IMG/VR virus record: IMGVR_UViG_3300025151_004056
Direction: 5' to 3' (one strand)
Length of the DNA stretch: 64,000 nucleotides
DNA from: an uncultured virus (IMG/VR IMGVR_UViG_3300025151_004056)
Lineage: Duplodnaviria; Heunggongvirae; Uroviricota; Caudoviricetes
Of this stretch, positions 17,808 through 63,954 are shown piece by piece. The stretch's first letter is position 1; every line of letters begins with the position of its first letter. A model generated the notes under the pieces. The model saw only the letters and a program-made list of their open reading frames with translations. It had not been told where the DNA came from and searched no databases. The translations under genes were made by a program, and so were the position numbers.

Positions 17808-18530
17808 CTAGGAGCAGTAATCAGCACCATTTCGATCCAGCATTCTCAGTAATGCAGTCCAAAACAAGTTTACATGCTCGTCCGGTGAGTCATTAATTCG
17901 TCCTATTTTATCCCATTCTGCTTCAGAAGGAACTGATAGTTCTGCACCAGTACGCAGGACATCGACTTGAATTTTACAGGCGTTTTCAAGCATATAGAGA
18001 TTATAAAGAGCCTCTGGAATATTTTTGGCTACAGATAGTAAGCCATGATTTCGCATAATCAGCAAAGATTTATCGCCAATATCTTTTCCTAATTGGGCAC
18101 ATGATCTAGTATTAGGAACTTCGATACAATGGTAATCGTAATAGTTTATTTTGTTTTGTACTTCACCTGATTGTTGTGACAAGTTCATCAGTCCTTCTTT
18201 CATACATGAAACTGCGATTCCCGCACGGGTATGTGAATGCAAAATACAGTTTACATCTTGTCTAGTTTTCATTATTGCTGTATGAATTGCATGTCCTGCA
18301 TCCATATAAGATTCTCCTGCTAAGATTTTTCCATCGAAATCAACCTTAACAAGATTAGATGCAGTTACCTCATCAAACATTAAGCCATAAGGGGTAGTCA
18401 AGTAATGATTTTTATTTTGAGGTAGCCGAACACTTAAATGAGTAAAGATTACATCTGTCCAACCGAAATGATGAAAGAGGTGATGGCAAGCGGCGAGATC
18501 GCATCTTAATTTCCATTCAGTATCTTCCAT
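17808..18530 (-). CDS. Class II aldolase/adducin family protein
   Basis: HLSVR, PYGLMFDEVTASNLVKVD, IHTAI, HSHT, MRNHGLL, LENACKIQ. Confidence 0.9.
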   Translation of the reverse strand: MEDTEWKLRCDLAACHHLFHHFGWTDVIFTHLSVRLPQNKNHYLTTPYGLMFDEVTASNLVKVDFDGKILAGESYMDAGHAIHTAIMKTRQDVNCILHSHTRAGIAVSCMKEGLMNLSQQSGEVQNKINYYDYHCIEVPNTRSCAQLGKDIGDKSLLIMRNHGLLSVAKNIPEALYNLYMLENACKIQVDVLRTGAELSVPSEAEWDKIGRINDSPDEHVNLFWTALLRMLDRNGADYCS

Positions 18531-22841: not shown

Positions 22842-23728
22842 TATGGCCTCATATGATCTGTTTCTGGTTTGCCTGCCCAGTTTTTATTTAAGTAATCTAA
22901 TCCCAATTCATTGAAGTAATAGACGTTTCTGCAAAATTCTAGTGGGTAATAATTTAGTGCATTGTTAGGATTATGTTGCACTTCTTTTTCTGTTTCTGGA
23001 GTATGTATTAATATGTCATGTAACTTGGCATGTTTACAATCAGTCACTTCAATTTCATCATAACGTTCTGCAATTTCTGCCAAAACAAAATCTGCAAGAT
23101 GTTTGTGTCCTTCTACTGTTTCATGTAAGCAAGGGGTCTTTTCAAAATCTTGGGTGATTTCATTAAAATTACGTAGTTTTCCCGGATGCAATTCTAATTC
23201 ATTTGCTAAAATTGTTTCATGCTTGTCAATAAACTCATTTACTAATCCATTAGTAACTGGCATATAATCACTCATTAAATGAGGAATATTATGAGAGTCT
23301 AGTAAACTATTAATGCTTGACCAACGATGTAATTTGTCTTGTTCCATTAAACAATAATAGTGATCATCGGAGTTTAAAATTATTTCTTTTTCTAACTGAG
23401 TGTGGGTACTATAACCGTCAACAATATAAAAATGATGAGGTAACTGATTCGGTGGCACTTGTGACAAATAGCATTCTCTACGTGATGATTGGGTGTATGC
23501 ATGTATATAGAAAGGATTATTGTCATGCAAAAGGTCTTTATAAAAGTATTGCATCGTTCTACGAAAGATTGCTTGATTACCCTGTCCGGGTATAGAAAGA
23601 TTAACTAACGGAACACCTAAACGTTTTGCAATGATAGAGGCCCAACCATCTTTGATTGGATCTGAGATTCCGTGTCCATATGTGTAACTACAGCCGTTAA
23701 CGACTAAGTGTGATATTTTTAATTTCAA
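22841..23728 (-). CDS. SGNH-like hypothetical protein
   Basis: VVNGCSYTYG, NLSIPGQGN, LHETVEGH; likely TTG start overlapping the iscA stop (TTGA). Confidence 0.6.
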   Translation of the reverse strand: MKLKISHLVVNGCSYTYGHGISDPIKDGWASIIAKRLGVPLVNLSIPGQGNQAIFRRTMQYFYKDLLHDNNPFYIHAYTQSSRRECYLSQVPPNQLPHHFYIVDGYSTHTQLEKEIILNSDDHYYCLMEQDKLHRWSSINSLLDSHNIPHLMSDYMPVTNGLVNEFIDKHETILANELELHPGKLRNFNEITQDFEKTPCLHETVEGHKHLADFVLAEIAERYDEIEVTDCKHAKLHDILIHTPETEKEVQHNPNNALNYYPLEFCRNVYYFNELGLDYLNKNWAGKPETDHMRP

Positions 23729-24042
23729 ATTGTAAAACTCTCTCCACAACCACAACGTGCTTTTTCTAAAGGATTTATGAATTCAAAACCTTCATTTAAT
23801 CCTTGTTTTTGATAGTCTACTGTGATTCCTTCAAGTATAGTGTTAGCCTTTGGATCAATTAGTATTGAAAACCCATCGTATTCATTAATGATGTCTTCTT
23901 CATTAATAGAATCTGCAAATTCAAGTTTATAAGCATATCCACTACATCCTGTAGTTTCGATACCTATACGAATTCCAACGCCTTTACCGCGTTTGTCTAA
24001 ATGGGCTTTAATTTTGTCTTTTGCGATTTCTGTAACTTCCAT
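23725..24042 (-). CDS. iscA: Fe-S cluster assembly A-type carrier (IscA/HesB)
   Basis: TGCSGYAY and C-terminal RCGCGESF. Confidence 0.95.
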   Translation of the reverse strand: MEVTEIAKDKIKAHLDKRGKGVGIRIGIETTGCSGYAYKLEFADSINEEDIINEYDGFSILIDPKANTILEGITVDYQKQGLNEGFEFINPLEKARCGCGESFTI

Positions 24043-32771: not shown

Positions 32772-33164
32772 ATGACAGATTCAAAGAAACCAATCGACTT
32801 TTTCGTAAAACTGACAGAGACTCACCCTTTTATTTCGGTGTTGCAATACGCCGGGTCGGACTTTGTTGGCATCGTTCAGAACCGCGATGATCTTGTTACA
32901 ACTATATATGATTACGGTGCAATTGTTGATACAGAAAAACGATTGAAGTTTTTAGAGTTAGGAGACGTTTGGTGGTGGGAGTCGAATCGTCAAATACCTA
33001 TTCATTTATTTCTTAAACAAGAGTGGGCTATGTTTAAGCCTTTCTTAAGAACATTCAATAACAAATCATTGACATTGTTACATGGACCTGTTGTATCAAT
33101 GACTGACTTTCAAAAGAAAAGAGTTAAAAGAAAATCGATTACTTTGGTGAAGAGACCTTACTAA
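32772..33164 (+). CDS. Hypothetical protein
   Basis: 130 aa, WWWESNRQIPI; late box upstream. Confidence 0.65.
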   Translation: MTDSKKPIDFFVKLTETHPFISVLQYAGSDFVGIVQNRDDLVTTIYDYGAIVDTEKRLKFLELGDVWWWESNRQIPIHLFLKQEWAMFKPFLRTFNNKSLTLLHGPVVSMTDFQKKRVKRKSITLVKRPY

Positions 33165-33696
33165 GTCTTTTAGCCATCTTAGCAATTTGACGTTTCTTTT
33201 TTGCTCTGCGTTTCTTAGCCAATTCTAAACTAAGTTTGCTTTGCACACGTTCTTCAAACGTAACGCCTAATAGGTGATCATACTCATGCAAAAATACACG
33301 TGCTTGAATACCAGTAAGATGTTTTTCTTTAACGATTTCACCATCGATTTGTTGATATGAAACTACGCATTCAGGTTGTCTTGGGACATGCAACCATAGA
33401 TCAGGATAACTTAAGCACCCTTCTAAGAATAATTCCTTTTCTCCTCTAAGTTCATCTACTTGAGGATTAATAAAAGCCATTAACTTTTCATCTGTGCCCA
33501 TGATGAATATATTTTTCATTACGCCACACTGTGGTGCCGCTAAACCGATACCAGGATGATTAGGGTTAAACATCACTTTAGTCATTGCTTTAATTAAATC
33601 AGTTGGATCACCGTCAAGTTTAAAGTCCCATGGTTCACAAGGTTCCTTTAGTTTAGGATCATTCTCTGATAACAATGTTAAAGTAAGTTCTTCCAT
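33139..33696 (-). CDS. def: Peptide deformylase
   Basis: GIGLAAPQ, EGCLS, HEYDH motifs; basic C-terminal tail. Confidence 0.95.
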   Translation of the reverse strand: MEELTLTLLSENDPKLKEPCEPWDFKLDGDPTDLIKAMTKVMFNPNHPGIGLAAPQCGVMKNIFIMGTDEKLMAFINPQVDELRGEKELFLEGCLSYPDLWLHVPRQPECVVSYQQIDGEIVKEKHLTGIQARVFLHEYDHLLGVTFEERVQSKLSLELAKKRRAKKKRQIAKMAKRLSKVSSPK

Positions 33697-34536: not shown

Positions 34537-35075
34537 TTAAGTCCTGCTTGTTTAAGTTTCTGATATGCACGTTGTACAACTACTGCTTGATGTTCGGCAT
34601 CTTCTACTGCTTTGTGAGACGTTACTGCTTGACCATCTTTAAGAGATACGTTACAAAGATCATAAATTGTTCTTGTATCTCTAATAGTATAGAAGGGCCA
34701 AGGTATCGGCATTTCTAATTGCCTAAAGGCGTTTTCTGCCACAACAATATCAAAACCAGCACCGTTAGACCAAACTGCTCTACGGTTCCAGCAGAACTTG
34801 TACAGTATATCCATAGCCTCTGCGAAAGGGATTCTACCGTTGTCGCCCATTGCTTCATTAATCGCATCTTCACTTTGCTCTCCCCACCACCTTAATGTAT
34901 CTGGATTTATGTGTCTGTTAAATTTTTCAGTTTGTGAATCTATTTCAGGACGTAGTTCTAGTTTTTCTGCGACTCCATTACCCATAGGATCAAAACGAAC
35001 AGCACCGATTGTTAAGATAACACAATCAGGGTCTGTACTCAGAGTCTCCATATCTATCATTACGTCATTTGCCAT
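34533..35075 (-). CDS. DEDDh 3'-5' exonuclease (DexA/RNase T-like)
   Basis: MIDMETL, WSNGAGFD, RDTRT, HKAVEDA. Confidence 0.9.
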   Translation of the reverse strand: MANDVMIDMETLSTDPDCVILTIGAVRFDPMGNGVAEKLELRPEIDSQTEKFNRHINPDTLRWWGEQSEDAINEAMGDNGRIPFAEAMDILYKFCWNRRAVWSNGAGFDIVVAENAFRQLEMPIPWPFYTIRDTRTIYDLCNVSLKDGQAVTSHKAVEDAEHQAVVVQRAYQKLKQAGLK

Positions 35076-35871
35076 TACTACTCCACACGTTATCTTCGTT
35101 TCTTATTTCTTTTATTATATCATTTCTGAGGTAATTAATCAATAGAATGGAACGTTTTTTGGGTAAATGCAATGGCATAGTAGAATGCATTAAACGAGTA
35201 TTATAAAACAAGATACTACCTTTTGGCATGTCATACTGTTCTGCATTCTCTAAAAAGTATTCATCATGCAAACCTTCATAGCAATCTTGTATATCCCAAT
35301 CTTGTTGATGACTGTAAGGGATAAGTCCAGTTGCTCCTGTGTCTTTGTCTAAGTCATCAAGCGGAATGATAACTTGTATGCCACAGATATCGTTGTTTTC
35401 TCTTTTATTATATTTTTTAAATCGATGTGGTGTATCAATGTGAGGTCCTACCCATCTGCTTGGACCATTGATTGTTACGATATCACTTGCATAAAATGTT
35501 GCATCAGTTAAATGTTTTTTGATTTCAGGATAGATAAGTTCATGTATCTCTTTTACTTCGTCCCAATCATCTGTAAGTTGACTCCACCATACAGCAATGC
35601 CAAACAGTTTTTTACATGCCTCTGCTTCTGCATACTGCTTCTTATGTGTGGATGCTCGTACAGGGTAGAGTTCGTCCTTTCTGTCGTTTATACGTTGAAT
35701 AAGGTCGTCTGATATGATATCATTTATGATATCAAAACCCCTGCCTTCATGTGATAATTGATCATTAATGATATCTTTTTTACCGAAGATACGATCATAG
35801 TTAGCGGCATAGGCTTTTTGATTTTCTGTCTTTCTAGGTGCGGATCCTTTTCCACCGTGCCACTGACTCAT
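35065..35871 (-). CDS. Phytanoyl-CoA dioxygenase-family 2OG-Fe(II) oxygenase
   Basis: PHID (HxD), IPLDD..TGATGLIPYSH, GSILFY..LMH..R; start MSQW overlaps upstream stop. Confidence 0.85.
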   Translation of the reverse strand: MSQWHGGKGSAPRKTENQKAYAANYDRIFGKKDIINDQLSHEGRGFDIINDIISDDLIQRINDRKDELYPVRASTHKKQYAEAEACKKLFGIAVWWSQLTDDWDEVKEIHELIYPEIKKHLTDATFYASDIVTINGPSRWVGPHIDTPHRFKKYNKRENNDICGIQVIIPLDDLDKDTGATGLIPYSHQQDWDIQDCYEGLHDEYFLENAEQYDMPKGSILFYNTRLMHSTMPLHLPKKRSILLINYLRNDIIKEIRNEDNVWSSNGK

Positions 35872-36260
35872 TGCCACCTCGTTTCTAGCCACACACGTTC
35901 TTCGTCACCTGCTAGATATATTCTACGTTGCTTATGATCTTCTTCATTAGACCAACACCAGTTTTCATTCAGTGTATCGTATGTACTGTCGTTGTATTGT
36001 GCTAGGCTCATAAAGTTTGATAGTTCATGTACTCTGTCGTAATCTTTCATATCACAACTAGGTCCCCATGTATCCCAACACCAATCTCGTACTTTATTAA
36101 AATTTATGATAGAAGACAAATCAGTATGTGCTAAAGGTCTAGGATGAAAACGTTCATATCTGGGAGGAGTTTTAGTGACACAACACCACTTGAATATGTC
36201 ATGTCCTTTCCATCGACCATCTAGTTCATAGAATTGTAAATGTACTTCTACTGTATTCAA
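35868..36260 (-). CDS. Hypothetical Trp-rich protein
   Basis: 130 aa, RDWCWDTWGPS. Confidence 0.6.
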   Translation of the reverse strand: MNTVEVHLQFYELDGRWKGHDIFKWCCVTKTPPRYERFHPRPLAHTDLSSIINFNKVRDWCWDTWGPSCDMKDYDRVHELSNFMSLAQYNDSTYDTLNENWCWSNEEDHKQRRIYLAGDEERVWLETRWQ

Positions 36261-39662: not shown

Positions 39663-41264
39663 TTAAGGCCTATATTGTAGTGTTATGAAGTATTCTAATC
39701 CACCTGCTCTGTAGTTAGGTACTAATTCAAATTCATCATCTAGTATATCTCTTACAGTAAATGATAGCAAGTATTTAGGAATAATTTGCCTTTCGATTTT
39801 GTAGTCAATTGAACTTACATCATCTAGCATTTCTGTACCATCGTATGGACCAGGCGTTCTGTTAAACAATCCAGTATATCTAAATGAAATATCATAACCA
39901 CCTAAGTAAGTTGTAGATGATATGATTGCTTTGTATTCAGGAATACGTGGTTGATCAGAGTTTGTGTATCCTAACTCAATACCTACTAGAGTAGTATTAA
40001 GTCTTTCAACAATAAAACTGTTTACATATCTAACACCTTCAGTGTCGTATGATCCAGTGTTAACAAACTGTGAGTCTGCAAAACTATAATCAATACCTTC
40101 ACTAAATTTGTATTTGAATACTGTAAAGTTCTTGTATCCAATCTCTCCACCTACTGCTTCTTCAGGGTCTAAACTTTTATTAGGTAAAGTCCAAGCATCA
40201 CCATTCAGTTCATAAAGAGTTGGGTTACGATATGATGTACCGAAACTACCAAACCAATCATTAGATTCTGCACCTATACGATATACAAATGCATCTTCAC
40301 TTAATCTAAAACCTAGATCAAACAGATCGAATGATGTTAAAGAGTAAACTGATAATTGAGTTTGGCTAAAGTCTTCATACTTTTCATTTTCAGCAGTTGC
40401 ACCCAGTAGTGTGTTTCCAACTTGATGTCTAGTATCTGCATAAAATCTTTCTGCATCACTCTTATATGTTTCTACACTTTCTGTTTTATAGTTAGCATTG
40501 TTAAATGAGTAACCAAATGTGTAGTTATCATTCCTTATTGATAAGGAACCTTTATCTCCTGATTGTACGCAATCATTTGACTGTGAGAAACTTGCAGTAT
40601 AGCAGTTATCATAGTCATACTCGTATGATGTACCTGATAGATTTACTTTCCAGTCACCGAATTCTTTCTGTCCTTTGACTGTTAAATTGTTATAACTATC
40701 CTTTTCATCGTTGTCTGTTCTAACACTATCATTCTTTGCATCAAAGTAACTTAGATTAAAACCACTGCCTGTATGACTTACAAATGTATTACTACCATAT
40801 CTGATAAGAGATCCATCTTTAAGATCATCAGTAATAAAAATAGCACCACCTAAACTACCAGATCCATATAGGACTGAAGTTGGACCATTGACTATTTTTA
40901 CATTTTCGTTTCCAGTAGCAAAGTCATGACCAAAGTCATACCAACCACTACCTGCATCATTTGCCGGCACACCATTTCTGAAAATAGTCGTGTGAATCGT
41001 TTGTGTTCCTCTTTCTGTATAACCTAAAAAAGAACCATAACCACCTGAAGTTGTTGCTTCGGGTATAATTGATTCTAATACGTTAACATCAGTCGAAGGA
41101 TCTGATTCTGTTTCATATATGGTTGCGCCTGTGACGACTATTTCTTCAATCTCTTGCGATTGTGTTTCGTTAGCCCACAACATTAGTAGCATGAATACTG
41201 CTACTGCATATAAAGGACTAAAATTTATGTGGAAGTTTTTTTCTTCTTCTGATAATTTAAACAT
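39663..41264 (-). CDS. TonB-dependent outer-membrane receptor (BtuB-like, compact)
   Basis: Signal peptide, EEIVVTG TonB-box region, plug motif NGVPAND..IVNGPTSVLYGSGSLGG, YRNPTLYEL, LDPEE, VRDILDDEF. Confidence 0.85.
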   Translation of the reverse strand: MFKLSEEEKNFHINFSPLYAVAVFMLLMLWANETQSQEIEEIVVTGATIYETESDPSTDVNVLESIIPEATTSGGYGSFLGYTERGTQTIHTTIFRNGVPANDAGSGWYDFGHDFATGNENVKIVNGPTSVLYGSGSLGGAIFITDDLKDGSLIRYGSNTFVSHTGSGFNLSYFDAKNDSVRTDNDEKDSYNNLTVKGQKEFGDWKVNLSGTSYEYDYDNCYTASFSQSNDCVQSGDKGSLSIRNDNYTFGYSFNNANYKTESVETYKSDAERFYADTRHQVGNTLLGATAENEKYEDFSQTQLSVYSLTSFDLFDLGFRLSEDAFVYRIGAESNDWFGSFGTSYRNPTLYELNGDAWTLPNKSLDPEEAVGGEIGYKNFTVFKYKFSEGIDYSFADSQFVNTGSYDTEGVRYVNSFIVERLNTTLVGIELGYTNSDQPRIPEYKAIISSTTYLGGYDISFRYTGLFNRTPGPYDGTEMLDDVSSIDYKIERQIIPKYLLSFTVRDILDDEFELVPNYRAGGLEYFITLQYRP

Positions 41265-47137: not shown

Positions 47138-48511
47138 ATGCATATGAGACATTTGAAAATCGCACTAATTTTATTTAGTGTGGGTTTTGCCAGCCCAAAT
47201 ATTTTTGCACAGGCGACTGGCACCTGTACGGCAGGTACTGAAAATTGTACAGCATCAACTACAACGACTACCTCCACAAATACCAATAATAATACCAATA
47301 CTAACACTAATACTACAACTAGTACTTCGACCAGTACCAATACCAATACTAATAATAATACTAACAATAATACCAATACCAACACCAATACTAACACCAA
47401 CACTAATACCAATACTAACACCAATACTAACACCAACAACAATACCAACAATAACACCAATGTAAACACTAACACTAATACCAGCACATCTACGAATACC
47501 AATACCAATACCAATACTAACACCAATACCAATAACAATACCAACAATAATACTACCAATTATACTGGTACTAGCACCAACACGAACAATAACAATAACA
47601 CTAATAACACCACAAGTAACAATACCAATACCAATACGAACACCAATTATAATACTAACAATACCACAAGTAACAACACCAATACCAACAATAATACCAA
47701 TACCAACAATACAACGGTAAACAGTACTTCCAATAACACGAATACTAATAACAACAATTCTAACATTAACCAGAACGTGAATAGCAACAGCAATTCTACG
47801 TCAACCAACACGAACAATAACAATAACAATACGACCTCGAATAATACTAATACCAATAACAATAACAACACTTCGACTAGTACAAGTGATTCCAATGTTA
47901 CGACTAACAACAAGTCTGAAAACACGAACACCAATACTAACAATAACACCAACATAAACAAAACTGATCAGACTATTAAACAAGAGATCACTACAAAGGC
48001 TCCACCTGCTAGTGCAATTGCACCAAGCATAGGGTCAAGTTATTCGCAAGATTTATGTACAACTGGTGTGTCTGGTGCGTTTCAGGGGCAAGTATTCGGT
48101 ATCTCAGGTGGTAAATCTGTTAGAGACATGAATTGTGAACGTATTAAACTATCAAAGACAATCTATGATATGGGTATGAAAGTGGCCGCAGTATCATTAA
48201 TGTGTCAGGATCCTAGAGTGTTTAGAGCAATGGAAATGGCAGGTACACCTTGTCCATATATGGGTGCTATTGGTCCAGCCGCTTCTGAGCAATGGGAAGA
48301 GAATGAAGAAAGAAGACCTGACTCAAGTGCAAGTACTAAAGACAAGTTTTTGGGTTTATTTACAAACAATGATGAAATAGAAGAAGATAATATTTCTAAT
48401 GTGACTGCTGATCAAGCCGCTTTCATCGAAAAATGTACTAGACCTGACTTTAAAGGAAGACGTAAATCTAGTAGGACTTGTGAGAGAGAATGGTTCGAAT
48501 TAAACTCTTAA
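47138..48511 (+). CDS. Exported protein with long Thr/Asn repeat and Cys-containing C-terminal domain
   Basis: Signal peptide, CxxxxxxC, ~230 aa of T/N, then PPASAIAP..DLC..CERIKL..MCQDPRV..GTPCP. Confidence 0.8.
   Translation: MHMRHLKIALILFSVGFASPNIFAQATGTCTAGTENCTASTTTTTSTNTNNNTNTNTNTTTSTSTSTNTNTNNNTNNNTNTNTNTNTNTNTNTNTNTNTNNNTNNNTNVNTNTNTSTSTNTNTNTNTNTNTNNNTNNNTTNYTGTSTNTNNNNNTNNTTSNNTNTNTNTNYNTNNTTSNNTNTNNNTNTNNTTVNSTSNNTNTNNNNSNINQNVNSNSNSTSTNTNNNNNNTTSNNTNTNNNNNTSTSTSDSNVTTNNKSENTNTNTNNNTNINKTDQTIKQEITTKAPPASAIAPSIGSSYSQDLCTTGVSGAFQGQVFGISGGKSVRDMNCERIKLSKTIYDMGMKVAAVSLMCQDPRVFRAMEMAGTPCPYMGAIGPAASEQWEENEERRPDSSASTKDKFLGLFTNNDEIEEDNISNVTADQAAFIEKCTRPDFKGRRKSSRTCEREWFELNS
47258..47960 (+). 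repeat. Low-complexity (AAY-ACY)n coding repeat
   Basis: Degenerate hexanucleotide repeats, almost G-free on plus strand. Confidence 0.95.
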
Positions 48512-51339
48512 TATTATTACTATTAACATTACCTAACTTTGCAGTAGCCGGTAACGGCACTGCATGGACAACAGGGACAGGCCAATACCAATACTCCCTA
48601 GAAACGAATGCTGATGGTACAGATACGGTTTACGAAATTAGTAATACGTTTGGAGATTTATACAATCTTTATGACAGACAAGCCGCAGGAGAAACAGGCA
48701 TTAATGGTTGTTGGAATTCCAACAATAGTGCCAGCAGTGGATATTTTAGTGATGACGGCGGTTGTGCTACTAAAGTAGATTTTGGTTTTTCATGGGAGTG
48801 GCACAACGACTCATTTACTGGTGGTTACATGAGTACTAATGGTTGTTTTATGTTAACTAAAGCAAACGAGGGGCCTAGATATTGTTCAGACTATACACCA
48901 GATCAATTAAACACACAGAGCGGAGGACAATGGGGCTGGTACGATGTTCTTTTTCCTTTCTACACTGACCTAATTGGTACTAATAGTAACAGTGCATTAT
49001 TATACAAAACATTTGATGACTATGTTATATTAGGGTGGTACAATTTAAAAGAATATCATAGAACTTCTAATAATAGTTTTGAAGTTTACATATACGATTA
49101 TAATGATTCTTTAGAAAAATGCGGTACAGACCGTTGTACTGATGCTGAAAGAGCAGAAGTTAATATGCCTGACAATTATACATTTGCTTATGGTGATTTA
49201 GATATTGCAAACCATGATGTTTTAATTGGAGAGAAAAAAGATAATTCAAATTATACTCAATATGTATTTTATGATGATAATACAAATGGTAACTCTACAT
49301 GGGACCAGTTCGACGGCGGATACTTAGAAGATGGTGGTGCCATATATTACCATGAAGGCAACGATGGACAATCTTTACTTGACCCTTGTACCTCTGATCC
49401 GTTATCAAGTACTGAATGTTCTGGTTATGAACAAGCATACTTCGATCAACAATGTAATTTAGATGCCCAATACGATTCTCAATGTCCTGGGTACGTTGAA
49501 TATACTGAGCCAGAAGACGATCAATGTGATATTAATCCTTTAAGTGATCCTTCATGTCCCAACTATCAAACTGCATTAGCAGAATCATCTGGTTCAGAGT
49601 ATGATTCTTCGACAGGAGAGTACGGATATGACGATGACGATTACGGTTATGATGATGATGACGATTACGGTTACGAGGATGAATACAGTGAATACAATGA
49701 TGACGGCTCTGATCTAGGTTTTGTAAGCAATGATGGGTCAGATGACGGAGCAATGACTGGGAACGAAACTTTTGAAGATGATTATACTGGTACATCTGAT
49801 GATGGTTTATATATTGAAGAAGAAATGTCAGGGGAAATGTTTACATCGACAGGAGTCGAACTAGTTGCAGTATCAGGAGAAGATTTATCAATAGACTCTG
49901 GAGTTGAATTATTTGAGGTTAATAGTGCAGGTAGCATAGATGACATAATCGCCGGTTACGATGATGACGATGCAATTATGGAAATGAACATGCCTGTTGA
50001 AGAATTTCAACAGCAACAAGCAGAACAAGAAATCGTATTAATAGAAACATATGAAGTTGAAACATATGAAGTTGAAACAACAGTATACCAACAAGAAGAA
50101 AATACAGTTGATTATGAACTTTATGTAGCAGGTGCACCCGAAGAAGAAGTTTGGGTAGCAAATGAAGAAGTTTCCGAAGAACCTATATTCGTAGAGTCGG
50201 AAGAAGTGTTTAACGTTTTAGCAGACGAGGATGAGGCTTTAGCAGAATTAATCAGTGAAGATGAATTAGAAGAATTAATAGAAGAAGAATCTGTTGAAGA
50301 AATTATTGAAGAAGTAGAAGAAGAAGCCGAAGAACTTGAAGTTGCTGAAGAACAAGAAGAAATTAAAGAAGAAATTAAAGAAGAAATTGCTAAGGTTGAA
50401 AAAGAAGTAGCACAGGCTAAAAGCAGTTCTTCAACATCATCTAAGAAACCAGCATCTCAATCTGTTGCTATTGCACAGGTTCTTACTGAGGTCTCTGATG
50501 ATACACAAACCGCTAACGTTATTGAAAGTGTAATATCTGATGGCAGTTCTGGATCAGTTCAAGTGGATTCAGGCGCATCACAAAGTTTCGCAGGTCAAGA
50601 CGGTGGTAGTTTTAATAACACTGGTTCCTCAGGTAGTGAGTCAACCGGTGTAATTGCAGATGATTCTAGCCAACAACAATTTGAACAAGTTACTGGTCAA
50701 GTTGATACATCAATTGATGCGGCTAATACATCTGTAGATGTCGTACAAACTTCTGCGTTCCAAGTTGCTGAACAGCAACAAGAACAATTGCAAGAAGAAC
50801 CTTTATTTGTAGACTCATTTGATGATGGTTCAGGTGGTATTAGTCAGACTGATGCTGATTTTGGTGACAGTTTAACTGAAGCACTATCTACAGGTACAGG
50901 GTTGACTGAGTTTTTAAGTCAACAAACACCAAACTTTCAAAGGTTTGAGGTACAGAATTCTGTACAAGAACAACGTACTACTCAAGCAGTCGAAAGTCTA
51001 GCAGACAAAGTTGGGTCGCAAGTTGCTTCACAAAACTTACAAGAGCAATTACAAAATATTCAGGACGGAGGACCTACTGAAGATGGCGGATATGCAGACC
51101 AAACTGTTGCTGTTGCTTATATAGGTTACACAGCAGGCTTTAGTGCGTATACAGGTGCACAAGTGTATGCTGATAATACAAATCAATGGTACGACAATAA
51201 ACAAATGCCAGATGGTAAGATAGATGACAACAAAATGGGATTCTATCGTATGGCTGGCAATACACAAGAAAAGTTGTATAAGATGGTTCTTATGCAATAT
51301 GGAATAAACCCAGATGAAGAAACACAGGAGCAAAAATAA
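48490..51339 (+). CDS. Large exported acidic protein (NIDO-like N-domain, Cys repeats, D/E-rich stalk)
   Basis: Signal peptide; MSTNGC..PFYTDL..GWYNL..NSFEV; three Cxx(D/N)xxxxxxCxxY repeats. Confidence 0.75.
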   Translation: MVRIKLLILLLLTLPNFAVAGNGTAWTTGTGQYQYSLETNADGTDTVYEISNTFGDLYNLYDRQAAGETGINGCWNSNNSASSGYFSDDGGCATKVDFGFSWEWHNDSFTGGYMSTNGCFMLTKANEGPRYCSDYTPDQLNTQSGGQWGWYDVLFPFYTDLIGTNSNSALLYKTFDDYVILGWYNLKEYHRTSNNSFEVYIYDYNDSLEKCGTDRCTDAERAEVNMPDNYTFAYGDLDIANHDVLIGEKKDNSNYTQYVFYDDNTNGNSTWDQFDGGYLEDGGAIYYHEGNDGQSLLDPCTSDPLSSTECSGYEQAYFDQQCNLDAQYDSQCPGYVEYTEPEDDQCDINPLSDPSCPNYQTALAESSGSEYDSSTGEYGYDDDDYGYDDDDDYGYEDEYSEYNDDGSDLGFVSNDGSDDGAMTGNETFEDDYTGTSDDGLYIEEEMSGEMFTSTGVELVAVSGEDLSIDSGVELFEVNSAGSIDDIIAGYDDDDAIMEMNMPVEEFQQQQAEQEIVLIETYEVETYEVETTVYQQEENTVDYELYVAGAPEEEVWVANEEVSEEPIFVESEEVFNVLADEDEALAELISEDELEELIEEESVEEIIEEVEEEAEELEVAEEQEEIKEEIKEEIAKVEKEVAQAKSSSSTSSKKPASQSVAIAQVLTEVSDDTQTANVIESVISDGSSGSVQVDSGASQSFAGQDGGSFNNTGSSGSESTGVIADDSSQQQFEQVTGQVDTSIDAANTSVDVVQTSAFQVAEQQQEQLQEEPLFVDSFDDGSGGISQTDADFGDSLTEALSTGTGLTEFLSQQTPNFQRFEVQNSVQEQRTTQAVESLADKVGSQVASQNLQEQLQNIQDGGPTEDGGYADQTVAVAYIGYTAGFSAYTGAQVYADNTNQWYDNKQMPDGKIDDNKMGFYRMAGNTQEKLYKMVLMQYGINPDEETQEQK

Positions 51340-52886: not shown

Positions 52887-53090
52887 TTATTTAGAATGAG
52901 GGGGTAGTTTTGCTTCTACAAACCACTCATGTTTTCTTTTAACCGGATTGTACTTTTTAAGTTTTAACTTAGTATTGTTTACGGTTAAATTTTTTGTTTT
53001 GATAGCAGTGTAATGATATGTATGATGATCTCTAGTTTCACCTTCGGGTATCAGATAAATCTTTGACTGTTTCTTTTTCTTGTCCGCCAT
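52887..53090 (-). CDS. rpmG: Ribosomal protein bL33 homolog (Cys-free type)
   Basis: KIYL..YHYTAIK..KLKLKKYNPVKRKHEWFVEAK matches the bL33 pattern (KLELKKFDP..RQHV.YKEAK). Confidence 0.8.
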   Translation of the reverse strand: MADKKKKQSKIYLIPEGETRDHHTYHYTAIKTKNLTVNNTKLKLKKYNPVKRKHEWFVEAKLPPHSK

Positions 53091-53187
53091 TGAATTTACC
53101 CTCTACTGCTTGTTGACTTACTACAAAGGTAAAACCACCACAGATCATCGGTAGCATCATTAGAATTAATACAAAAATTAGTTCCAC
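53038..53187 (-). CDS. Possible small TM peptide (49 aa, GTG start)
   Basis: MELIFVLILMMLPMICGGFTFVV...; alternative 33-aa frame at 53096..53197. Confidence 0.3.
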   Translation of the reverse strand: MELIFVLILMMLPMICGGFTFVVSQQAVEGKFNGGQEKETVKDLSDTRR

Positions 53188-53203
53188 TTTCTATCATTAT
53201 CTC

Positions 53204-53254
53204 TTAGCAACAAGTGCAGTTACAACATGAACAACAATTACATTTAGTATTCAT
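53204..53254 (-). CDS. Cys-rich micropeptide MNTKCNCCSCCNCTCC
   Basis: AAGGAG SD 6 nt before ATG; 8 Cys in 16 aa; TAA stop. Confidence 0.65.
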   Translation of the reverse strand: MNTKCNCCSCCNCTCC

Positions 53255-53264
53255 AGCAATCTCC

Positions 53265-55721
53265 TTAACTCTGATACTTCTCATATCCACTTAAACGTAA
53301 GATATCTTCTAACATATTGTCAGGTGCATGATCACGTGATTTGTCGTTTGCAACTTCTTCTGCGTGATCTCTATCTGCTTTAACATCTTTAACATCTACA
53401 TTCAGGTAATCTGCTAAATCTTCATCAGACATTTGACTAACAGACATTTCATCATGTGCATGTTTGCTTTCAGCGCCAACTAAGTCACCTACTTTTGCAG
53501 GTCTTCCTTTAGTCTTACCTGTGTTTTTCCATTGTCCGGCTTGACCTGTTTTATAGTCTCCGGCAAAATCAAATCCACCTGCTTTAGTTTCATCTATTTC
53601 TTCTTCTTTGATAGGATGACCTGGGTTGTAACCGCTAGTTGGTATCTCTCCGTGTTCATCTTTATAATCACTATACATTTGAGTAATTGTAGGACCTTCT
53701 GCAGGATAATTCATTGCGACCATGATATCATAGTAATCATCAAATCCAAGTGGGCCACCATATATATTAAATGGCTCTCCATTCAATATTGAATATTCTA
53801 CTTCTTTACCTGTTGTTGGGCTTTTAATTCTTTCGATTGGATAGTTTCCTTCTTCTAAATTATCAGGCTCGTTCTGTGTTTTGTAGATTGCTCTTTTAAC
53901 TCCTGGATGCTCAGACAATCCTGCTTTGATACCTTCGATTGCTTTAATTGCCCCAGTTTGATTACCGCCTTTATATCTAGGATCATTTAAAATGCCATAT
54001 GCCATTTTAATTTCTTTATCTGAAAAATCTTTTTCATCGATAACTGACTCTTCACCTAACAGTCCTGCTAAAGCAGTACCGATAGTTACTTTGTCTGCTG
54101 GTCTTGTATATGGTTCAGATTTCTTGTTTAATATTCTATCTGCTTCAATTCTTGAGGCATCTTTTGCATTTTTTGCTGAACTGGCTTTATTAAAATCATA
54201 TTGATTTTTGAACTTTTCGTACTCTCTAATTTCTGAGCCTAACTGTTTACGTTTTACTGGGTCACTTTCTTTTGGAATTTGCAGTTTACGATCTCTAATT
54301 CTTTGCTTGATTACTTCTTCATATGATTTAGCATTTCCAGAGGCTTGTTGTATTTGCTTTATGTCTGCATGAATTAAACTTCTCCAGTCATCATTTTCTG
54401 TTAAATCTAATTCTTGTTGCTTAGGACTTTCTATTTTATCTTTTAAGTCTTCTTCACTAAATGCGGCTAGAATGTCATCATATCTATGAGCCATAGTAGG
54501 ATGCTTCTCAGCAAATTCTTTCTCACTCATTTCTAATGCATCTACAACTAACTTATTATGTTTGCCTTCTTCTAAGTGTTCATCATCTGGATCGAACGGA
54601 TGAGGTCTAATTCTTTTGCCTGTCTTTGGATCATGGTTCTTGCCAGATTCTTCATCTCTTAACTCATCATCTTCAATACTACTGTTTTCTTTTTCTTCGT
54701 CTAATTCTTCCATTTCAGTAATAGACTTTGCCCATTGATCTAACTCATTAACTTCTTCGATTTCGTTAATGATATTACTATTAAGTTTGTTTAAGATAGG
54801 TAAAACACTTTCAATTCTTGGGTCGATTGATTCTTGTGAAAACATTTCTGCAATGCTTGTATGATCAGCATCGTCTTCCATAAGAGCAGGAGTCCATGAC
54901 TCAAAATAGTGGTTGTATCCTCTATGGCTTTGCATCTTTTGCAGTGTTTCTTTTATTGATCTATGATGTTTGACACCTTCTGCTATGAGTTGGGCGACAG
55001 ATTCATTAAATTCTCCTCTGCGTGTAGCACGAATAAATCCAGCCATCTTAGTATATTCTTCTACTAACTGAGTAATGTGCTTGCCTCTTTCATCATATGG
55101 AGTTCCACCTTCTGCTACGTGTCTACCATATACACGTGCAATGCCTGGCATTCTAGTTGGGACTGCAAAACGTTCGCCTTCAGTATTTTCAACAAAAATC
55201 TTGTGTACGTTTCTCCAACGTTGCTCTCCTTCACCGATTTGTCTGTCATGTTGAATTACAACTTTTACGTTAGGTATGTTATCGTTATATGATGTCATCT
55301 TATTAACAGCATGATAACCTTCTGTCATCTTTTCTTTCATTTTATAATAATCCCTCTGACGCATATCGTCACCTAAACGATCACTGTCATGTAAGCCAAA
55401 GTTTAGTTGTTTAGATAATGCCCATTGCTTTAAATGTTTTAGTAATCCAGACCAAGAATCATCATAATCCATGCCTTTTGTTTGTCCTGGAGGACTGCCT
55501 GCTTGATTATCATCATAGTATAGGTTTAATGATGATGTTTTATCAATAGTTGCCCATGCTTTACCGTAGTTTTCACCGTCTTTAATAAATTGAAACTCAA
55601 AAACATCTGCTGTTTCTGGATTAGTTCTTTCGTTTTTTGAGTCTTTAGGCGATGGTTTGTATCCACGAGTTTTTAAGATATCGTAGAGTCGTTTATTGAA
55701 GGATTCCTGATCAATTGCCAT
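53265..55721 (-). CDS. Large late protein downstream of terminase, probable head-associated protein
   Basis: 818 aa; modular acidic C-half with repeated (L/I)xE sites; ends EDILRLSGY. Confidence 0.65.
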   Translation of the reverse strand: MAIDQESFNKRLYDILKTRGYKPSPKDSKNERTNPETADVFEFQFIKDGENYGKAWATIDKTSSLNLYYDDNQAGSPPGQTKGMDYDDSWSGLLKHLKQWALSKQLNFGLHDSDRLGDDMRQRDYYKMKEKMTEGYHAVNKMTSYNDNIPNVKVVIQHDRQIGEGEQRWRNVHKIFVENTEGERFAVPTRMPGIARVYGRHVAEGGTPYDERGKHITQLVEEYTKMAGFIRATRRGEFNESVAQLIAEGVKHHRSIKETLQKMQSHRGYNHYFESWTPALMEDDADHTSIAEMFSQESIDPRIESVLPILNKLNSNIINEIEEVNELDQWAKSITEMEELDEEKENSSIEDDELRDEESGKNHDPKTGKRIRPHPFDPDDEHLEEGKHNKLVVDALEMSEKEFAEKHPTMAHRYDDILAAFSEEDLKDKIESPKQQELDLTENDDWRSLIHADIKQIQQASGNAKSYEEVIKQRIRDRKLQIPKESDPVKRKQLGSEIREYEKFKNQYDFNKASSAKNAKDASRIEADRILNKKSEPYTRPADKVTIGTALAGLLGEESVIDEKDFSDKEIKMAYGILNDPRYKGGNQTGAIKAIEGIKAGLSEHPGVKRAIYKTQNEPDNLEEGNYPIERIKSPTTGKEVEYSILNGEPFNIYGGPLGFDDYYDIMVAMNYPAEGPTITQMYSDYKDEHGEIPTSGYNPGHPIKEEEIDETKAGGFDFAGDYKTGQAGQWKNTGKTKGRPAKVGDLVGAESKHAHDEMSVSQMSDEDLADYLNVDVKDVKADRDHAEEVANDKSRDHAPDNMLEDILRLSGYEKYQS

Positions 55722-55738
55722 ACTATTATTTATCTCTT

Positions 55739-57301
55739 TTAGTTAATCACAGCAAAGAACGGCAATGGAGCAACCATCTCATCATGGTCTCGCATATGTT
55801 CAGTTAAGTCACTGTGAAAGTCTGTAATGTCTTGTAGAATGCGTACTACTAGCAATGTAGCCATAACTAAGTCATCGTTATCTCCGATCTTTGCTTGATA
55901 ACTACCACCAGATGCAACGAATGTTTTTAACTCACTAATTAATGCTTTGCTTCTTACATTCATTTTCTTGCTTTCCATCAGTGTTTTAAACTTAGCACAT
56001 GCGGCTAGTTTTACTTTCTGTGTTGTGTTGTATCCTCTACGTTTTTTACCTTTTTCACTTAAGAAAATACCTTGAATATTTGCTTCACCGTATTCTGCTA
56101 GTGAGATTAATGCGGCTTCTCCGATAGAATTGTTTTCTAGTGAGTAGTATATGTTGTTTGGTTCGCCTGTTTCTTCTGCTATGTATTGTGTAATTTGTCC
56201 TAATAACTTAATTTGTCTAGGAATATCTGTTTTGTTGTCTTTCCATTCACCAACTTGTGTAGTAGTGTTTGCTTCAAAAATTTGTATTGCGGCTGGATCT
56301 CCGCCTGTACCCAATGATGGATCTAGTCCTACACAGTATACCATACCTTTCTTGGGCTTTTGAAACCATCTGACTTGACCCATTCTATCTGTAGGTTCTA
56401 CTGATTCTAACATGATTAACGTATTAGGATTGATTAATGTTTCATCTGCAATTAAGAATTCACAACCGATTTCACGTGCAAATCTGTCGTCTCCTAACTG
56501 TGCTTTGATTTCTTCTGCCCACTTCTCATCACGTCCGGGTTGCTCATGCCAATATGATCTAAAAGGTTTAAATCCATTAACACCTAGTTCTGTTTCTTCT
56601 CCGTTAGCATCTGTATTTTTATTTGCTTGTTTCCAAATGAGAGCAAACTGATCTTCATCAGAGTTCGGAGTAGATGTGATGATTGCTTTACCACCTGTTG
56701 CTAGTGTTGGTGTGATAGAAGTCCAAAACTGTTCGGCAATTGTAGGTCTTACGAATGCAAACTCATCCAGATACAAGAGTGTGATCGACATACCACGACC
56801 CGTATTCTCTGTAGTCGTTGCTGACACAATACGAGAGCCATTCTCAAAGTCTAACGATCCTTTGTTGTATGTAACAACACCTGCTTTGATATGTGTAGGG
56901 CAGTTTTCATATGCATATCTGATACGTTGCATAATCTCTTGTGAACCTGTGTACTTATGTGCGGCAATTAGAATAGTAGCATCAGGTACAAACATAGCAT
57001 ACCAAAGCAAATAGCCTGCGGCTGATGTAGACTTACCTGACTGTCTAGGCATAAGAGCAATTGAATATCTATAATTATGATAAGTGTCGATTAAACGTTC
57101 TTGGTATTCATAAGGATGATATTGAATTGAACCTTGCGTTGGATGCTGAATATAAAAGAAGTTATCCATAAAGTATAGATAACCAGTTTCAGGATCACAA
57201 CATTTTACAAAGTCATCAATCTCTGTTTGATTTTTAAATGCTGTTTTCTTATAAGCAGGTTTGACTAATTCGCCCGTTCCGCTTGTATTAAAGTTGCTCA
57301 T
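55739..57301 (-). CDS. terL: Terminase large subunit (gp17-like)
   Basis: YEYQ, PRQSGKS, YLDEFAF, ITSTPN, GLDPSLG, ENNSIG, DDLVMA. Confidence 0.97.
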   Translation of the reverse strand: MSNFNTSGTGELVKPAYKKTAFKNQTEIDDFVKCCDPETGYLYFMDNFFYIQHPTQGSIQYHPYEYQERLIDTYHNYRYSIALMPRQSGKSTSAAGYLLWYAMFVPDATILIAAHKYTGSQEIMQRIRYAYENCPTHIKAGVVTYNKGSLDFENGSRIVSATTTENTGRGMSITLLYLDEFAFVRPTIAEQFWTSITPTLATGGKAIITSTPNSDEDQFALIWKQANKNTDANGEETELGVNGFKPFRSYWHEQPGRDEKWAEEIKAQLGDDRFAREIGCEFLIADETLINPNTLIMLESVEPTDRMGQVRWFQKPKKGMVYCVGLDPSLGTGGDPAAIQIFEANTTTQVGEWKDNKTDIPRQIKLLGQITQYIAEETGEPNNIYYSLENNSIGEAALISLAEYGEANIQGIFLSEKGKKRRGYNTTQKVKLAACAKFKTLMESKKMNVRSKALISELKTFVASGGSYQAKIGDNDDLVMATLLVVRILQDITDFHSDLTEHMRDHDEMVAPLPFFAVIN

Positions 57302-61634: not shown

Positions 61635-62744
61635 TTAGGGCTCGTAGAAGACGCAAATTTCGTCTGCAACTTTCTCAACCTCTGCATCAGTTAACTCAGG
61701 ATACATAGGCAAACTTAATAGTGATCGTGTAAGCAGTGTACTAGTAGACATAAGATCAGGCTTCTCTAAATTTTCTGCAATTGGAAGTTCACTCAATGCT
61801 GTCTTATAATGTATTTTTGTTTCTACTTCTTTATGATTCAACCAGGCTTCTAATTGCTGACGTTCGGCGCCTGCATTAACTACAAACTTTGAATCAGCAT
61901 GAGTTTCAAACCCTTCACTTAAACATTTTAATGGTTGGATATGTTTAAATCTGTCTATATAGTATTCTCTAATTTGCTTTCTACGTGCTTGCCATTCATC
62001 TATATACTTTGTTCTTACCATTAAATGAGAACAATCTAGTTCACTCATTTTAGAGTTTGTACCAGAATAAAAATGATATGGCTTTCCGTTATCTTTCCAT
62101 TGACTAGCAAATTCATATAATGCTTGATTGTTTGTAACGATGGCTCCGCCGTTTCCTGAAGCATTTAAATTTTTAGTAGGATCAAAACTAATTGCCATTG
62201 CAGTTCCTATGTTACCGTCTGCGATCAACCAATGTTGTGCTCCGTCTACAATTGCAATGTTGTTGTTTAATACTGCTACACCATTATCACTTTCAACTGC
62301 TACTGTAGGGGCGCCGAATAAACCAACATGACATTCAATCTTTTGTAATTCATCTTCTGGTTGTGGAAGAATAATACCATTTCTATCAGTGTCTACAAGT
62401 TCTACGTTTAATCCAGCACTTAAGAATGCGTTCATTGTTGCAGGATATGTCAGATTAGGAACTCTGATTGTTCTGTAAACGTCTTTATCATATTCCCATG
62501 ATGTGTAAGGATCTTGGTCTGGAGACGTATCTCTTTCATAACGTGCAATTATCTCTAATGCTTGTGTTCCACTATGACACAGTATGACATAATGTGCCTT
62601 TGTTTTTATAGATAACCAATCTGCAAATTTCTTTGAATACTCACCGTCATTAAGACTGCCACTAGAAAGAACTGAATCGGTTGCATCAAGCAATTCATCT
62701 TTAATATTTTTATATTGTCTATCTAATCCAAAATACTTAACCAT
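61635..62744 (-). CDS. DegT/DnrJ/EryC1/StrS PLP-dependent sugar aminotransferase
   Basis: SGTQAL, TYPAT, DGAQ, SFDPTKNL..GNGGA, GTNSKM, LSLPMYPEL. Confidence 0.92.
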   Translation of the reverse strand: MVKYFGLDRQYKNIKDELLDATDSVLSSGSLNDGEYSKKFADWLSIKTKAHYVILCHSGTQALEIIARYERDTSPDQDPYTSWEYDKDVYRTIRVPNLTYPATMNAFLSAGLNVELVDTDRNGIILPQPEDELQKIECHVGLFGAPTVAVESDNGVAVLNNNIAIVDGAQHWLIADGNIGTAMAISFDPTKNLNASGNGGAIVTNNQALYEFASQWKDNGKPYHFYSGTNSKMSELDCSHLMVRTKYIDEWQARRKQIREYYIDRFKHIQPLKCLSEGFETHADSKFVVNAGAERQQLEAWLNHKEVETKIHYKTALSELPIAENLEKPDLMSTSTLLTRSLLSLPMYPELTDAEVEKVADEICVFYEP

Positions 62745-63954
62745 GTTCTTTTAGCATTGTATGTAATTCTTCATTACAATCAACTAATGCTTGTCCTCTG
62801 TGTTCGTCTAACAAATTATTAAACTTAATATATTCTTGTAACATGTTTATGTCTTTGCTTTCTTCTTGGCACTTATCTTTTAATGCATTTATTGTATCTT
62901 TAAAAATCTGTGATTGCCATTTACAATCATTTAACATCCACATAAATATTTTTGCAAAGGCTTTTTGTTTAAAGTCTTTAGGTAGATAATCGATATTCAA
63001 GTGTTGCGGGTCTTGTAACAATATCGGTCTTATATCAATTAAAGGTTTGTTTTCTTTAATGTTGATGTCTTCAAAGTATTTAAACAGATCAACTATCTTG
63101 TTTAAATTTCCTATTTGAATAACTGGCGTCGCCCAAAGTTTAACGTTTTGCATTGTAATTAGTTTTTGTATGCTTTCATCAATCTGACTGAACTTGCTAG
63201 GATATCTCAAATACTCTTGTACCCCTTCGTATCCGTCAATGCTTAATTGTAGTATGACTGATTTAAAGTTGGGCAAATACTGATAGAATTTTGGATTGGT
63301 GTTTGTAAGATTTGTATTAATAATTAATGTAATATCTTTACTTTTGTCTAACTCTATTAACTCCTGTAATATTTCAAAGTTCTTTTCGATGACAGTAGGT
63401 TCTCCACCTGTCATATAAATTGTATCGATATTATCTATTTGACTTTTAATGTTTGAATCAAACGTATCTGTTTCCCACCAGTAATTACTTTCTACATCAA
63501 ACTGCGGATAAAATCTAGTGTATTCTGTATTATTAATTTCTAAGATTTCTTTTTCTATCTGACTACTATTTGTAGGATTGCAACTTCTACATTTTAGATT
63601 ACATAGATTACCAAAACGCAAATCAAAAAATTTAATTTTAAGATCACTTTTAGTTGTAGTTGGAATAATGTCTTTGTATTGTTCGTTGTTGATTAGTCTG
63701 CGACTTTGACGACCATACTTTTCATTGTGATAACATACATCGCATCCAGAGATATACTCTCCGTCTAACATCTTTTGTCTTAAATTAACAAAGTCTTTGC
63801 TGTTGTAGATATCATCTATATTATCATAGCCTAAGTTAAACTTAGTACCATCATCTTTTGTAATATAGTCATGTGAAATACAACAAGGCTTGATTGCACC
63901 GTCGGGGTCAACTGTAATGTTTACCCAAGGCAAAACACAAAACGACTCCGTCAT
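62737..63954 (-). CDS. Radical SAM protein with N-terminal SPASM/twitch-like domain
   Basis: CNLKCRSC (CxxxCxxC), TGGEP, NTN, SIDG; N-term CVLPW..PCC..CDVC. Confidence 0.92.
   Translation of the reverse strand: MTESFCVLPWVNITVDPDGAIKPCCISHDYITKDDGTKFNLGYDNIDDIYNSKDFVNLRQKMLDGEYISGCDVCYHNEKYGRQSRRLINNEQYKDIIPTTTKSDLKIKFFDLRFGNLCNLKCRSCNPTNSSQIEKEILEINNTEYTRFYPQFDVESNYWWETDTFDSNIKSQIDNIDTIYMTGGEPTVIEKNFEILQELIELDKSKDITLIINTNLTNTNPKFYQYLPNFKSVILQLSIDGYEGVQEYLRYPSKFSQIDESIQKLITMQNVKLWATPVIQIGNLNKIVDLFKYFEDINIKENKPLIDIRPILLQDPQHLNIDYLPKDFKQKAFAKIFMWMLNDCKWQSQIFKDTINALKDKCQEESKDINMLQEYIKFNNLLDEHRGQALVDCNEELHTMLKEHG

Follow-up and report, generated by a model that had tools for sequence, protein, structure and literature searches.

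How can a reading frame of only 16 codons, eight of which specify cysteine, be a gene in its own right, and what would its product do for a phage? This question is raised by a 64,000-nucleotide stretch of DNA (the window, always meant at its full length) from an uncultured virus of the Caudoviricetes (IMG/VR record IMGVR_UViG_3300025151_004056), on the minus strand of which a cysteine-rich micro-open reading frame (micro-ORF) extends from an ATG at 53254-52 to a TAA at 53206-04. On the evidence of sequence conservation, the frame belongs to a family that is a genuine, conserved and independently initiated phage gene, in the following termed the micro-gene, and its product is probably a tiny peptide that binds metal or a cluster. 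The function that we favour, with a probability of roughly 0.5, is that of a metallothionein-like thiolate micro-protein with a role in the iron-sulfur (Fe-S) cluster supply of the phage.

The micro-gene in the window

53204..53254, minus strand: micro-gene encoding MNTKCNCCSCCNCTCC, plus TAA; family pattern M-x(0-5)-C-x-CC-x-CC-[NSTK]-C-[TNSDE]-CC-[G/S/E]?-stop
53261..53266, minus strand: Shine-Dalgarno (SD) sequence AAGGAG of the micro-gene, 6 nucleotides (nt) before the ATG

Re-reading of the window bore out the coordinates, the sequence, the eight cysteines and the AAGGAG-6 nt-ATG arrangement given in an initial annotation that had been made from the sequence alone. The product, MNTKCNCCSCCNCTCC, comprises 16 aa with 8 Cys, which are encoded by TGT (six codons) and TGC (two codons). 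The spacer ATTGCT (53260-53255) separates AAGGAG from the ATG, and the SD sequence overlaps the TAA stop codon (53267-53265) of an upstream 818-codon gene. The remark of the annotation that the frame had been missed by the ORF-finding program applies to the 16-codon version, which is indeed unlisted, yet the program does hold it within a GTG-extended frame of 28 aa (53204-53290).

The window contains the codon pattern for the eight cysteines a single time, and none of 100 dinucleotide shuffles reproduces it. ATG-initiated ORFs of at most 30 aa with 8 Cys were likewise obtained in 0 of 200 shuffles, the maximum being 7 Cys (reached in 5 shuffles). The reality of the micro-gene is argued more strongly by its conservation elsewhere than by these shuffle statistics.

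A conserved family with a coding signature

Relatives were retrieved via neighbouring proteins (L33, a cytidylyltransferase and a DUF5824 protein), a procedure blind to the micro-ORF itself, and others were added by pattern scans. In IMG/VR, 68 L33-related loci were found, 7 of which, on distinct contigs, carry the micro-gene directly upstream of L33. A search for Cys-rich micro-ORFs near phage rpmG had been proposed in the initial annotation; the L33-anchored set revealed a conserved frame at these 7 loci. The five peptide variants encoded there (MNSKCKCCSCCNCTCC, MKCECCSCCNCTCC, MNTKCECCSCCNCTCC, MNTKCECCTCCNCTCC and MSKCTCCECCNCTCC) keep every Cys, with TGT and TGC swapped at several positions and residue changes confined to the linkers. 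More variants were contributed by the cytidylyltransferase- and DUF5824-anchored sets, all of them with 8/8 Cys and without a single decayed copy; in these, Asn is replaced by S, T or K, and G, S or E may trail the last CC.

Pattern matches were filtered for non-Cys linkers, a start codon at most 8 codons away and at most one residue past the last CC, which removed 487 matches as junk and subsequently 25 of the 78 remaining contexts. Among the matches listed, the filtered family comprises at least 53 distinct sequences, at least 47 cores and at least 42 peptides of 13-18 aa. These counts are lower bounds, and loose 7-Cys and free-linker patterns, which returned mostly poly-Cys low-complexity matches, give no census.

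C-x-CC-x-CC-x-C-x-CC is invariant in all 42 listed peptide variants, and the core is free of indels. Differences between the 47 listed cores amount to 4740 at the wobble position versus 1334 at position 1 and 1464 at position 2, positions 1 and 2 of the Cys codons having been fixed by the search patterns. Since the Cys positions were preset in this way, only the neighbour-anchored sets test Cys retention without bias. The four linker positions of the listed cores are occupied exclusively by K, E, T, N, Q, S, D and R, with no aromatic or hydrophobic residue; the peptide of locus L107 displays YY in its N-terminal extension. Upstream of the start codon, an SD-like 4-mer (at -18..-4) is present in 46 of the 53 listed members versus 164 of 964 (17 %) control ATGs from the same loci. 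Between start Met and first Cys, 0-5 residues are found in all 53 sequences, and one member (L257) starts with GTG in place of the ATG of the otherwise identical L118. Judging by the exact Cys spacing, the indel-free core and the all-hydrophilic linkers, selection acts on the peptide itself.

All contigs with the micro-gene are marine-type viral or metagenome records with a G+C content of 31-40 %. Across 185,579 representative prokaryote genomes, the strict pattern yielded no true copy; the single match was judged to be due to chance because it is startless and runs antisense to a real ORF. Fused forms of the 8-Cys motif were not found among the DNA-pattern matches. At E-values up to 10, no match was obtained for a 20-aa relative (P0001) in Pfam, NCBIfam and PDB, nor for the 28-aa extended frame of the window in Pfam and NCBIfam, the power of such searches being low at this length.

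A presence/absence cassette

Two loci, L039 and L040, have both flanks in common, and L040 possesses 68 extra bases (SD, ORF and stop) between AGAGTTA and AGAGATA. The two strings form imperfect repeats bounding the insertion, and the SD string TAAGGAGATA before the micro-ORF is echoed after it as TAAGAGATA. Similar differences exist between closely related genomes: in L027-L030 and L032, the L33 of which are 97-99 % identical, the 818-codon gene runs straight into a hydrophobic ORF without an intervening micro-gene, and upstream of the cytidylyltransferase the micro-gene is present in L375 and L379 and lacking in L380, L381, L384 and L385. Each of five long micro-gene-positive records contains exactly one copy. 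As judged from these comparisons, the micro-gene is a presence/absence cassette of ~68 nt, consisting of its own ribosome-binding site and the ORF, and its insertion looks like recombination at ribosome-binding sites.

The same polymorphism was encountered in public sequencing runs, of which two RNA libraries (X15, X16) and two DNA runs (X4, X5) were compared; they hold 54-73 % of the words of the region. A contig of X15 joins 53160 to 53283 via 51 other letters and represents an allele lacking the micro-gene, and in X4 and X5 a micro-gene-less allele is indicated by nothing more than loose ends at these two positions, 53160 and 53283. These contigs show natural presence/absence polymorphism and are uninformative on expression. 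The DNA runs X1-X3, in turn, seem to contain a micro-gene-positive allele.

In L386-L388, the slot ~75 nt upstream of the cytidylyltransferase start is occupied by a different micro-ORF of 16 aa and 6 Cys (MCKCESCKCDPCTCSN), which suggests that Cys chemistry rather than a specific sequence is selected. Further Cys-rich frames were noted in L416 (a 53-aa ORF carrying a similar CxCxxCxCxxCxC block) and in L168 (a 42-aa ORF in which a Cys-rich block, …SGGSCCDCCKCCCCK…, is fused with a hydrophobic segment).

Relation to ribosomal protein bL33

53038..53187, minus strand: 49-codon hydrophobic ORF, single-transmembrane (TM)-like, between micro-gene and L33
52887..53090, minus strand: homologue of ribosomal protein bL33, cysteine-free (C-minus type), same operon, downstream of the micro-gene

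In the initial annotation, the micro-gene had been tied to the Zn-free bL33 encoded by rpmG, from which it was said to be ~110 nt distant. The distance proved accurate (113 nt from the stop codon to the L33 ATG at 53090), but neither the strand nor the intervening 49-codon ORF had been given. Adjacency to L33 is restricted to one lineage (7/68 L33 loci). In the 170-kb record G002, which is 99 % complete, the micro-gene is present and L33 was not found, and the same applies to four other long micro-gene-positive records (0/5 in total). Conversely, the 8-Cys pattern occurs nowhere in 15 L33-bearing records totalling 1.10 Mb, and the closest relatives of the window phage keep L33 without the micro-gene. 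Across the sequences compared, the link to bL33 is lineage-specific and not general, and in the window the micro-gene merely rides in an operon ahead of the membrane ORF and bL33.

Fe-S biogenesis genes in the neighbourhood

Neighbouring genes were scanned with Pfam, PHROG and NCBIfam, and the arrangement types were grouped by our own judgement. NfuA (PF01521 + PF01106; TIGR03341 3e-71) adjoins the micro-gene, being located upstream of it in L560, L540, L573 and L612 and downstream in L581. IscA-type carriers follow the micro-gene immediately in L118, L257 and L651, and the order micro-gene-IscU-IscA is realized in L554 (IscU: PF01592 1e-37, TIGR01999 2.5e-47), the micro-gene of which encodes a 14-mer. 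Overall, Fe-S genes are immediate same-strand neighbours in 9 of the 53 listed sequences, corresponding to 4 of ~25 arrangement types. Base rates were derived from 3 Fe-S genes in 1.10 Mb of micro-gene-negative records versus 7 in 0.56 Mb of micro-gene-positive long records, on the assumption of 1 gene per 0.9 kb. They predict 0.12-0.56 Fe-S arrangements, as compared to ~4 observed (Poisson P 9e-6 to 3e-3). Within 131 flank ORFs (>=110 aa, within 1.5-2.5 kb, from 36 representative loci), 6 are Fe-S genes versus 3 of ~1,220 control genes (Fisher P = 5e-5). IscU or NfuA is also present in 5/5 long micro-gene-positive records tested, with IscU and IscA adjacent at 89.9-90.6 kb in G002. The window phage, by sequence homology, shows Fe-S biogenesis cargo as well (IscA), at a site not adjacent to the micro-gene:

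23725..24042, minus strand: IscA-type A-type Fe-S carrier (PF01521 60 bits; TIGR02011 1.7e-38, under the equivalog cut-off; TIGR00049 106.7 vs 58.8 bits)

Excerpts of an earlier study (PMC5332604, Nishimura et al.) describe marine viral genomes of the T4-like kind in which A-type carriers, IscU and as many as 12 radical SAM genes are combined; the same excerpts mention neither cysteine nor a peptide gene of this kind (term count 0).

Many copies of the micro-gene are harboured by an insertion hot spot formed by DUF6267, a cytidylyltransferase-like gene and DUF5824-DUF6321. The DUF6267 proteins (e.g., L379 36-1130) contain a K-Y-D-G string and are regularly followed by the cytidylyltransferase-like gene with DUF6321 or DUF5824 tails; we take the string to resemble motif I of ATP-dependent ligases. 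DUF6267 and the cytidylyltransferase may act as a pair in the repair or modification of nucleic acids and at the same time form the hot spot. Other neighbours of the micro-gene are a dCMP deaminase and an MBL-fold protein, and one flank contains a peroxiredoxin. In L257 (4-1264, minus strand), heme oxygenase and a ferredoxin-dependent bilin reductase are encoded ~1.2-2.5 kb from the micro-gene-IscA pair, implying that the family also resides in cyanophage-like genomes.

Proposed function

The sequences directly show a conserved gene with a coding signature that behaves as a cassette and whose family is enriched beside Fe-S scaffold and carrier genes; metal binding and a task in Fe-S supply are what we infer. 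The product of 13-18 residues would present a block of eight Cys thiolates spaced by hydrophilic residues, and its ~68-nt cassette spreads among marine phages by slotting between genes while their translational coupling stays intact. Inside the infected cell, the cytoplasm of which is reducing, the thiolate cluster would bind metal in the fashion of a metallothionein. The peptide would belong to an Fe-S supply kit of the phage, together with the IscU scaffold, the IscA and NfuA carriers and many radical SAM enzymes, and it may act in one of two ways, as a holder of iron or of a labile Fe-S cluster that is later passed on, or as a guard that shields scaffold and carriers from thiophilic competitors (Zn, Cu). 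A more far-reaching version is put forward only tentatively, as a proposal that we ourselves rather doubt: the Cys8 peptide could be an unrecognised part of virus-borne Fe-S assembly and the smallest natural Fe-S/iron-thiolate carrier, which is exchanged among T4-like and jumbo phages of marine origin on a self-contained ~68-nt cassette and heads IscU-IscA operons or flanks NfuA/IscA.

Among the three functions suggested in the initial annotation, an ultra-small metallothionein agrees best with the Cys spacing, the hydrophilic linkers and the stand-alone cassette, once the general tie to bL33 is removed from it. The peptides are small and poor in aromatics, exceed a Cys content of 20-30 % (8 Cys in 13-18 aa) and display the C-x-C, C-C or C-x-x-C arrangement by which metallothioneins are recognized. 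Further common traits are the very small size as such, a Cys proportion of 50-60 %, CxC/CC motifs, an aromatic-free core with hydrophilic linkers, and the expected metal-thiolate cluster. The shortest fungal Cu-thioneins have ~25 residues, and the vertebrate alpha-domain includes a CC-x-CC stretch; to our knowledge, the phage peptide (13-18 aa) is half the size of the smallest known metallothioneins. Unlike these, it concentrates 8 Cys in 12 residues, is encoded by a mobile ~68-nt cassette and has no detectable homology: metallothionein sequence models and solved structures gave no significant match at E up to 10, with low power at such length. It also differs in its surroundings, since no metal-responsive regulator is located near the phage gene and the neighbours suggest Fe-S assembly instead of Zn/Cu detoxification. 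With ISC and NFU operons the micro-gene shares the position of a same-strand, translationally coupled neighbour of IscU, IscA or NfuA in the 9/53 listed sequences; we know of no ISC or SUF component that is a Cys8 peptide of such size.

Several observations weigh against a task in Fe-S supply. The micro-gene of the window lies 29 kb away from IscA, and in G002, G003 and G008 its distance to IscU is 7-49 kb. NfuA-anchored contexts lack the micro-gene in 2 of 5 cases, which makes the adjacency facultative, and the micro-gene-negative relative G011 retains IscA. Part of the adjacency may reflect co-localisation in an island, as many contexts fall in one hot spot. The Fe-S contexts are moreover phylogenetically clustered, reducing them to few (3-4) independent events, and the base rates stem from rough gene-number estimates in fragments of other phage groups. 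Tightly packed CC pairs are closer to metallothionein clusters than to known Fe-S ligand spacings. Finally, no contig of X15, X16, X4 or X5 spans 53174-53255, i.e., the micro-ORF is uncovered in RNA and DNA runs alike, because those runs carry the allele lacking it.

Alternative explanations

The metal-binding chemistry of the preferred Fe-S supply peptide is shared by a general mini-metallothionein that would buffer or scavenge Zn, Cu or Cd without any special Fe-S role, including the capture of Zn freed by a swap of bL33, and this remains a live alternative even if we regard it as rather unlikely. It would accommodate the metallothionein-like composition and CxC/CC motifs, the metal-dependent enzymes among the neighbours (dCMP deaminase, MBL-fold protein), and the constant position of the micro-gene in the window lineage, where it is always found just upstream of L33 or of TM ORF plus L33, even behind a different upstream gene (L040). 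It leaves the excess of IscU, IscA and NfuA neighbours unexplained, however, and its bL33 version conflicts with the 7/68 L33 loci, the 0/5 other long records with L33 and the 15 L33 records devoid of the pattern. A different thiol function, such as a store of persulfide or sulfane sulfur, a sink for redox equivalents or reactive oxygen species, or an inhibitor or decoy of a host thiol enzyme or defence, is in our opinion unlikely. A mobile accessory cassette is typical of host-directed phage cargo and one flank does encode peroxiredoxin, all of which is unspecific; a recurrent neighbour of such kind was not observed, nor was a family match at E up to 10.

A regulatory upstream ORF, in which charged tRNA-Cys gates the transit of ribosomes and hence the coupled downstream gene, had also been considered in the initial annotation. 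Attenuator leaders (his, trp, Cys-rich) similarly are short ORFs packed with the codons of one amino acid upstream of a gene, and such a device would be logical for Fe-S genes, cysteine being the sulfur donor. In most contexts the stop codon of the micro-gene is 0-16 nt from the next start, the micro-ORF is upstream in 3/4 Fe-S arrangements, and a number of downstream genes lack a separate SD (the string TAAATG precedes both NfuA in L581 and the L303 gene, and TAAATAATG precedes IscA in L118 and L257). The latter genes must therefore be coupled to the micro-ORF, and a cysteine-gated effect is conceivable as a side property. As the primary function it is improbable in our judgement. Unlike in attenuators, the downstream genes are not those of cysteine biosynthesis but a diverse set unrelated to cysteine supply (L33, TM ORF, IscU, IscA, NfuA, cytidylyltransferase, DUF5824, exonuclease, FabF-like and unknowns), alternative hairpins are missing, and selection falls on the peptide (Cys spacing, no core indels, hydrophilic linkers). 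The NfuA-first arrangement places the Fe-S gene upstream, in L107 the micro-gene is succeeded by a terminator hairpin with nothing coupled, and tight coupling between flanking genes is also found at sites without the cassette. In the window, a 201-nt region has no stable or alternative fold (z = +0.75; 154/200 shuffles fold as well), and its only terminator-like match is weak and located inside the TM ORF. Diverse downstream genes, the L107 terminator and, for the window, the missing attenuator fold together leave the Cys-tRNA-sensing leader without support.

The third suggestion, a precursor of a ribosomally synthesized and post-translationally modified peptide (RiPP) cross-linked by a phage radical SAM/SPASM-type enzyme, has become very improbable. 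Cys-rich peptides are classic radical SAM substrates, and, as with SCIFF/ranthipeptides and sactipeptides, a small Cys-rich peptide here co-occurs in one genome with radical SAM enzymes, in which these phages are rich: one was detected in the window, one each in G003, G004 and G005, and 9 matches (8 over the cut-off) in G002. In contrast to those families, the phage peptide has neither leader nor adjacent maturase and reaches only about one third of SCIFF length. The Radical_SAM domain (PF04055) occurs in 0 of the 131 flank ORFs of the 36 loci, the closest radical SAM gene is separated from the micro-gene by 5 kb (G002), 12 kb (G003) or 9.5 kb (window), and the 0-5 residues ahead of the first Cys provide no leader for recognition by an enzyme. 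G006 has the micro-gene and no radical SAM match, but this record is a fragment. Five of the G002 matches are located in a single cluster at 13.0-18.5 kb.

Novelty and implications

Neither small metal peptides rich in Cys nor Fe-S genes in phages are new as such. Literature outside subscription journals, to which the search was confined, yielded neither a phage cysteine micro-peptide nor such a peptide in Fe-S assembly, and within this scope no description exists of the 13-18-residue Cys8 gene, of its mobility as a cassette or of its Fe-S neighbourhood. Should the product bind metal or Fe-S clusters, it would rank as the smallest representative of such chemistry to be encoded by a gene. It would then also add a new part to the Fe-S toolkit by which abundant ocean phages re-equip their hosts, and would bear on the use of iron and trace metals during infection. 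The family also illustrates that 13-18 codons suffice for a strongly selected, mobile and widespread gene, of a kind that gene callers and protein databases overlook. Being so short, the peptide can be synthesized, which makes metal binding directly testable, and the natural presence and absence of the micro-gene offers a ready comparison for fitness effects.

Genomic context and the phage of the window

53265..55721, minus strand: 818-codon gene, family unknown (no Pfam or PHROG match; 26 related loci)
55739-57301: large terminase (TerL), directly upstream of the 818-codon gene
61635-62744: DegT-type sugar aminotransferase, beside the radical SAM gene
62737..63954, minus strand: radical SAM protein with N-terminal twitch domain (NF033640 328.5 bits vs 170)

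The L33 of the window scores 24 bits against the Pfam L33 model (cut-off 25) and 28 bits against NCBIfam TIGR01023 (cut-off 23.95). It contains 0 Cys and hence no CxxC pairs; the L33 of some relatives carry one Cys. The 49-codon hydrophobic ORF overlaps the L33 start by ~50 nt. It was found in L027-L034 irrespective of the presence of the micro-gene, and L037, L038 and L042 possess the micro-gene without it. From their separate occurrence in relatives, the two are independent of each other. An alternative 33-aa frame (53197-53096) was rejected, as substitutions (window, L027 and L033 compared) are radical in this frame and conservative in the 49-codon frame. The radical SAM enzyme of the window was likewise rejected as a maturase of the peptide, being 9.5 kb off, of the N-terminal twitch type and located beside the sugar aminotransferase.

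Isolate phages provided no DNA match to a 3.5-kb region of the window, and no tblastn match to L33 was obtained in the same collection. The nearest isolates by TerL are distant (~49 % identity) and comprise jumbo phages of the PA5oct, Atu_ph07 and Phosso types. The relatives of the window phage (G011-G025) measure 43-130 kb and attain a CheckV completeness of only 12-37 %. Because of this low completeness at such lengths and the TerL resemblance, the lineage of the window is probably an uncultured marine jumbo phage carrying bL33. In the nearest record, G001, a 35-kb fragment, the 8-Cys pattern was not found. Further cargo genes were identified in the window:

17808-18530, minus strand: class II aldolase
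33139-33696, minus strand: peptide deformylase
35065-35892, minus strand: PhyH-type dioxygenase
39663-41264, minus strand: TonB-dependent receptor plug domain protein

On the plus strand (48490-51339), a protein of 949 aa without Pfam match is encoded, which displays a signal-like N-terminus and long acidic low-complexity stretches rich in D, E and Y.

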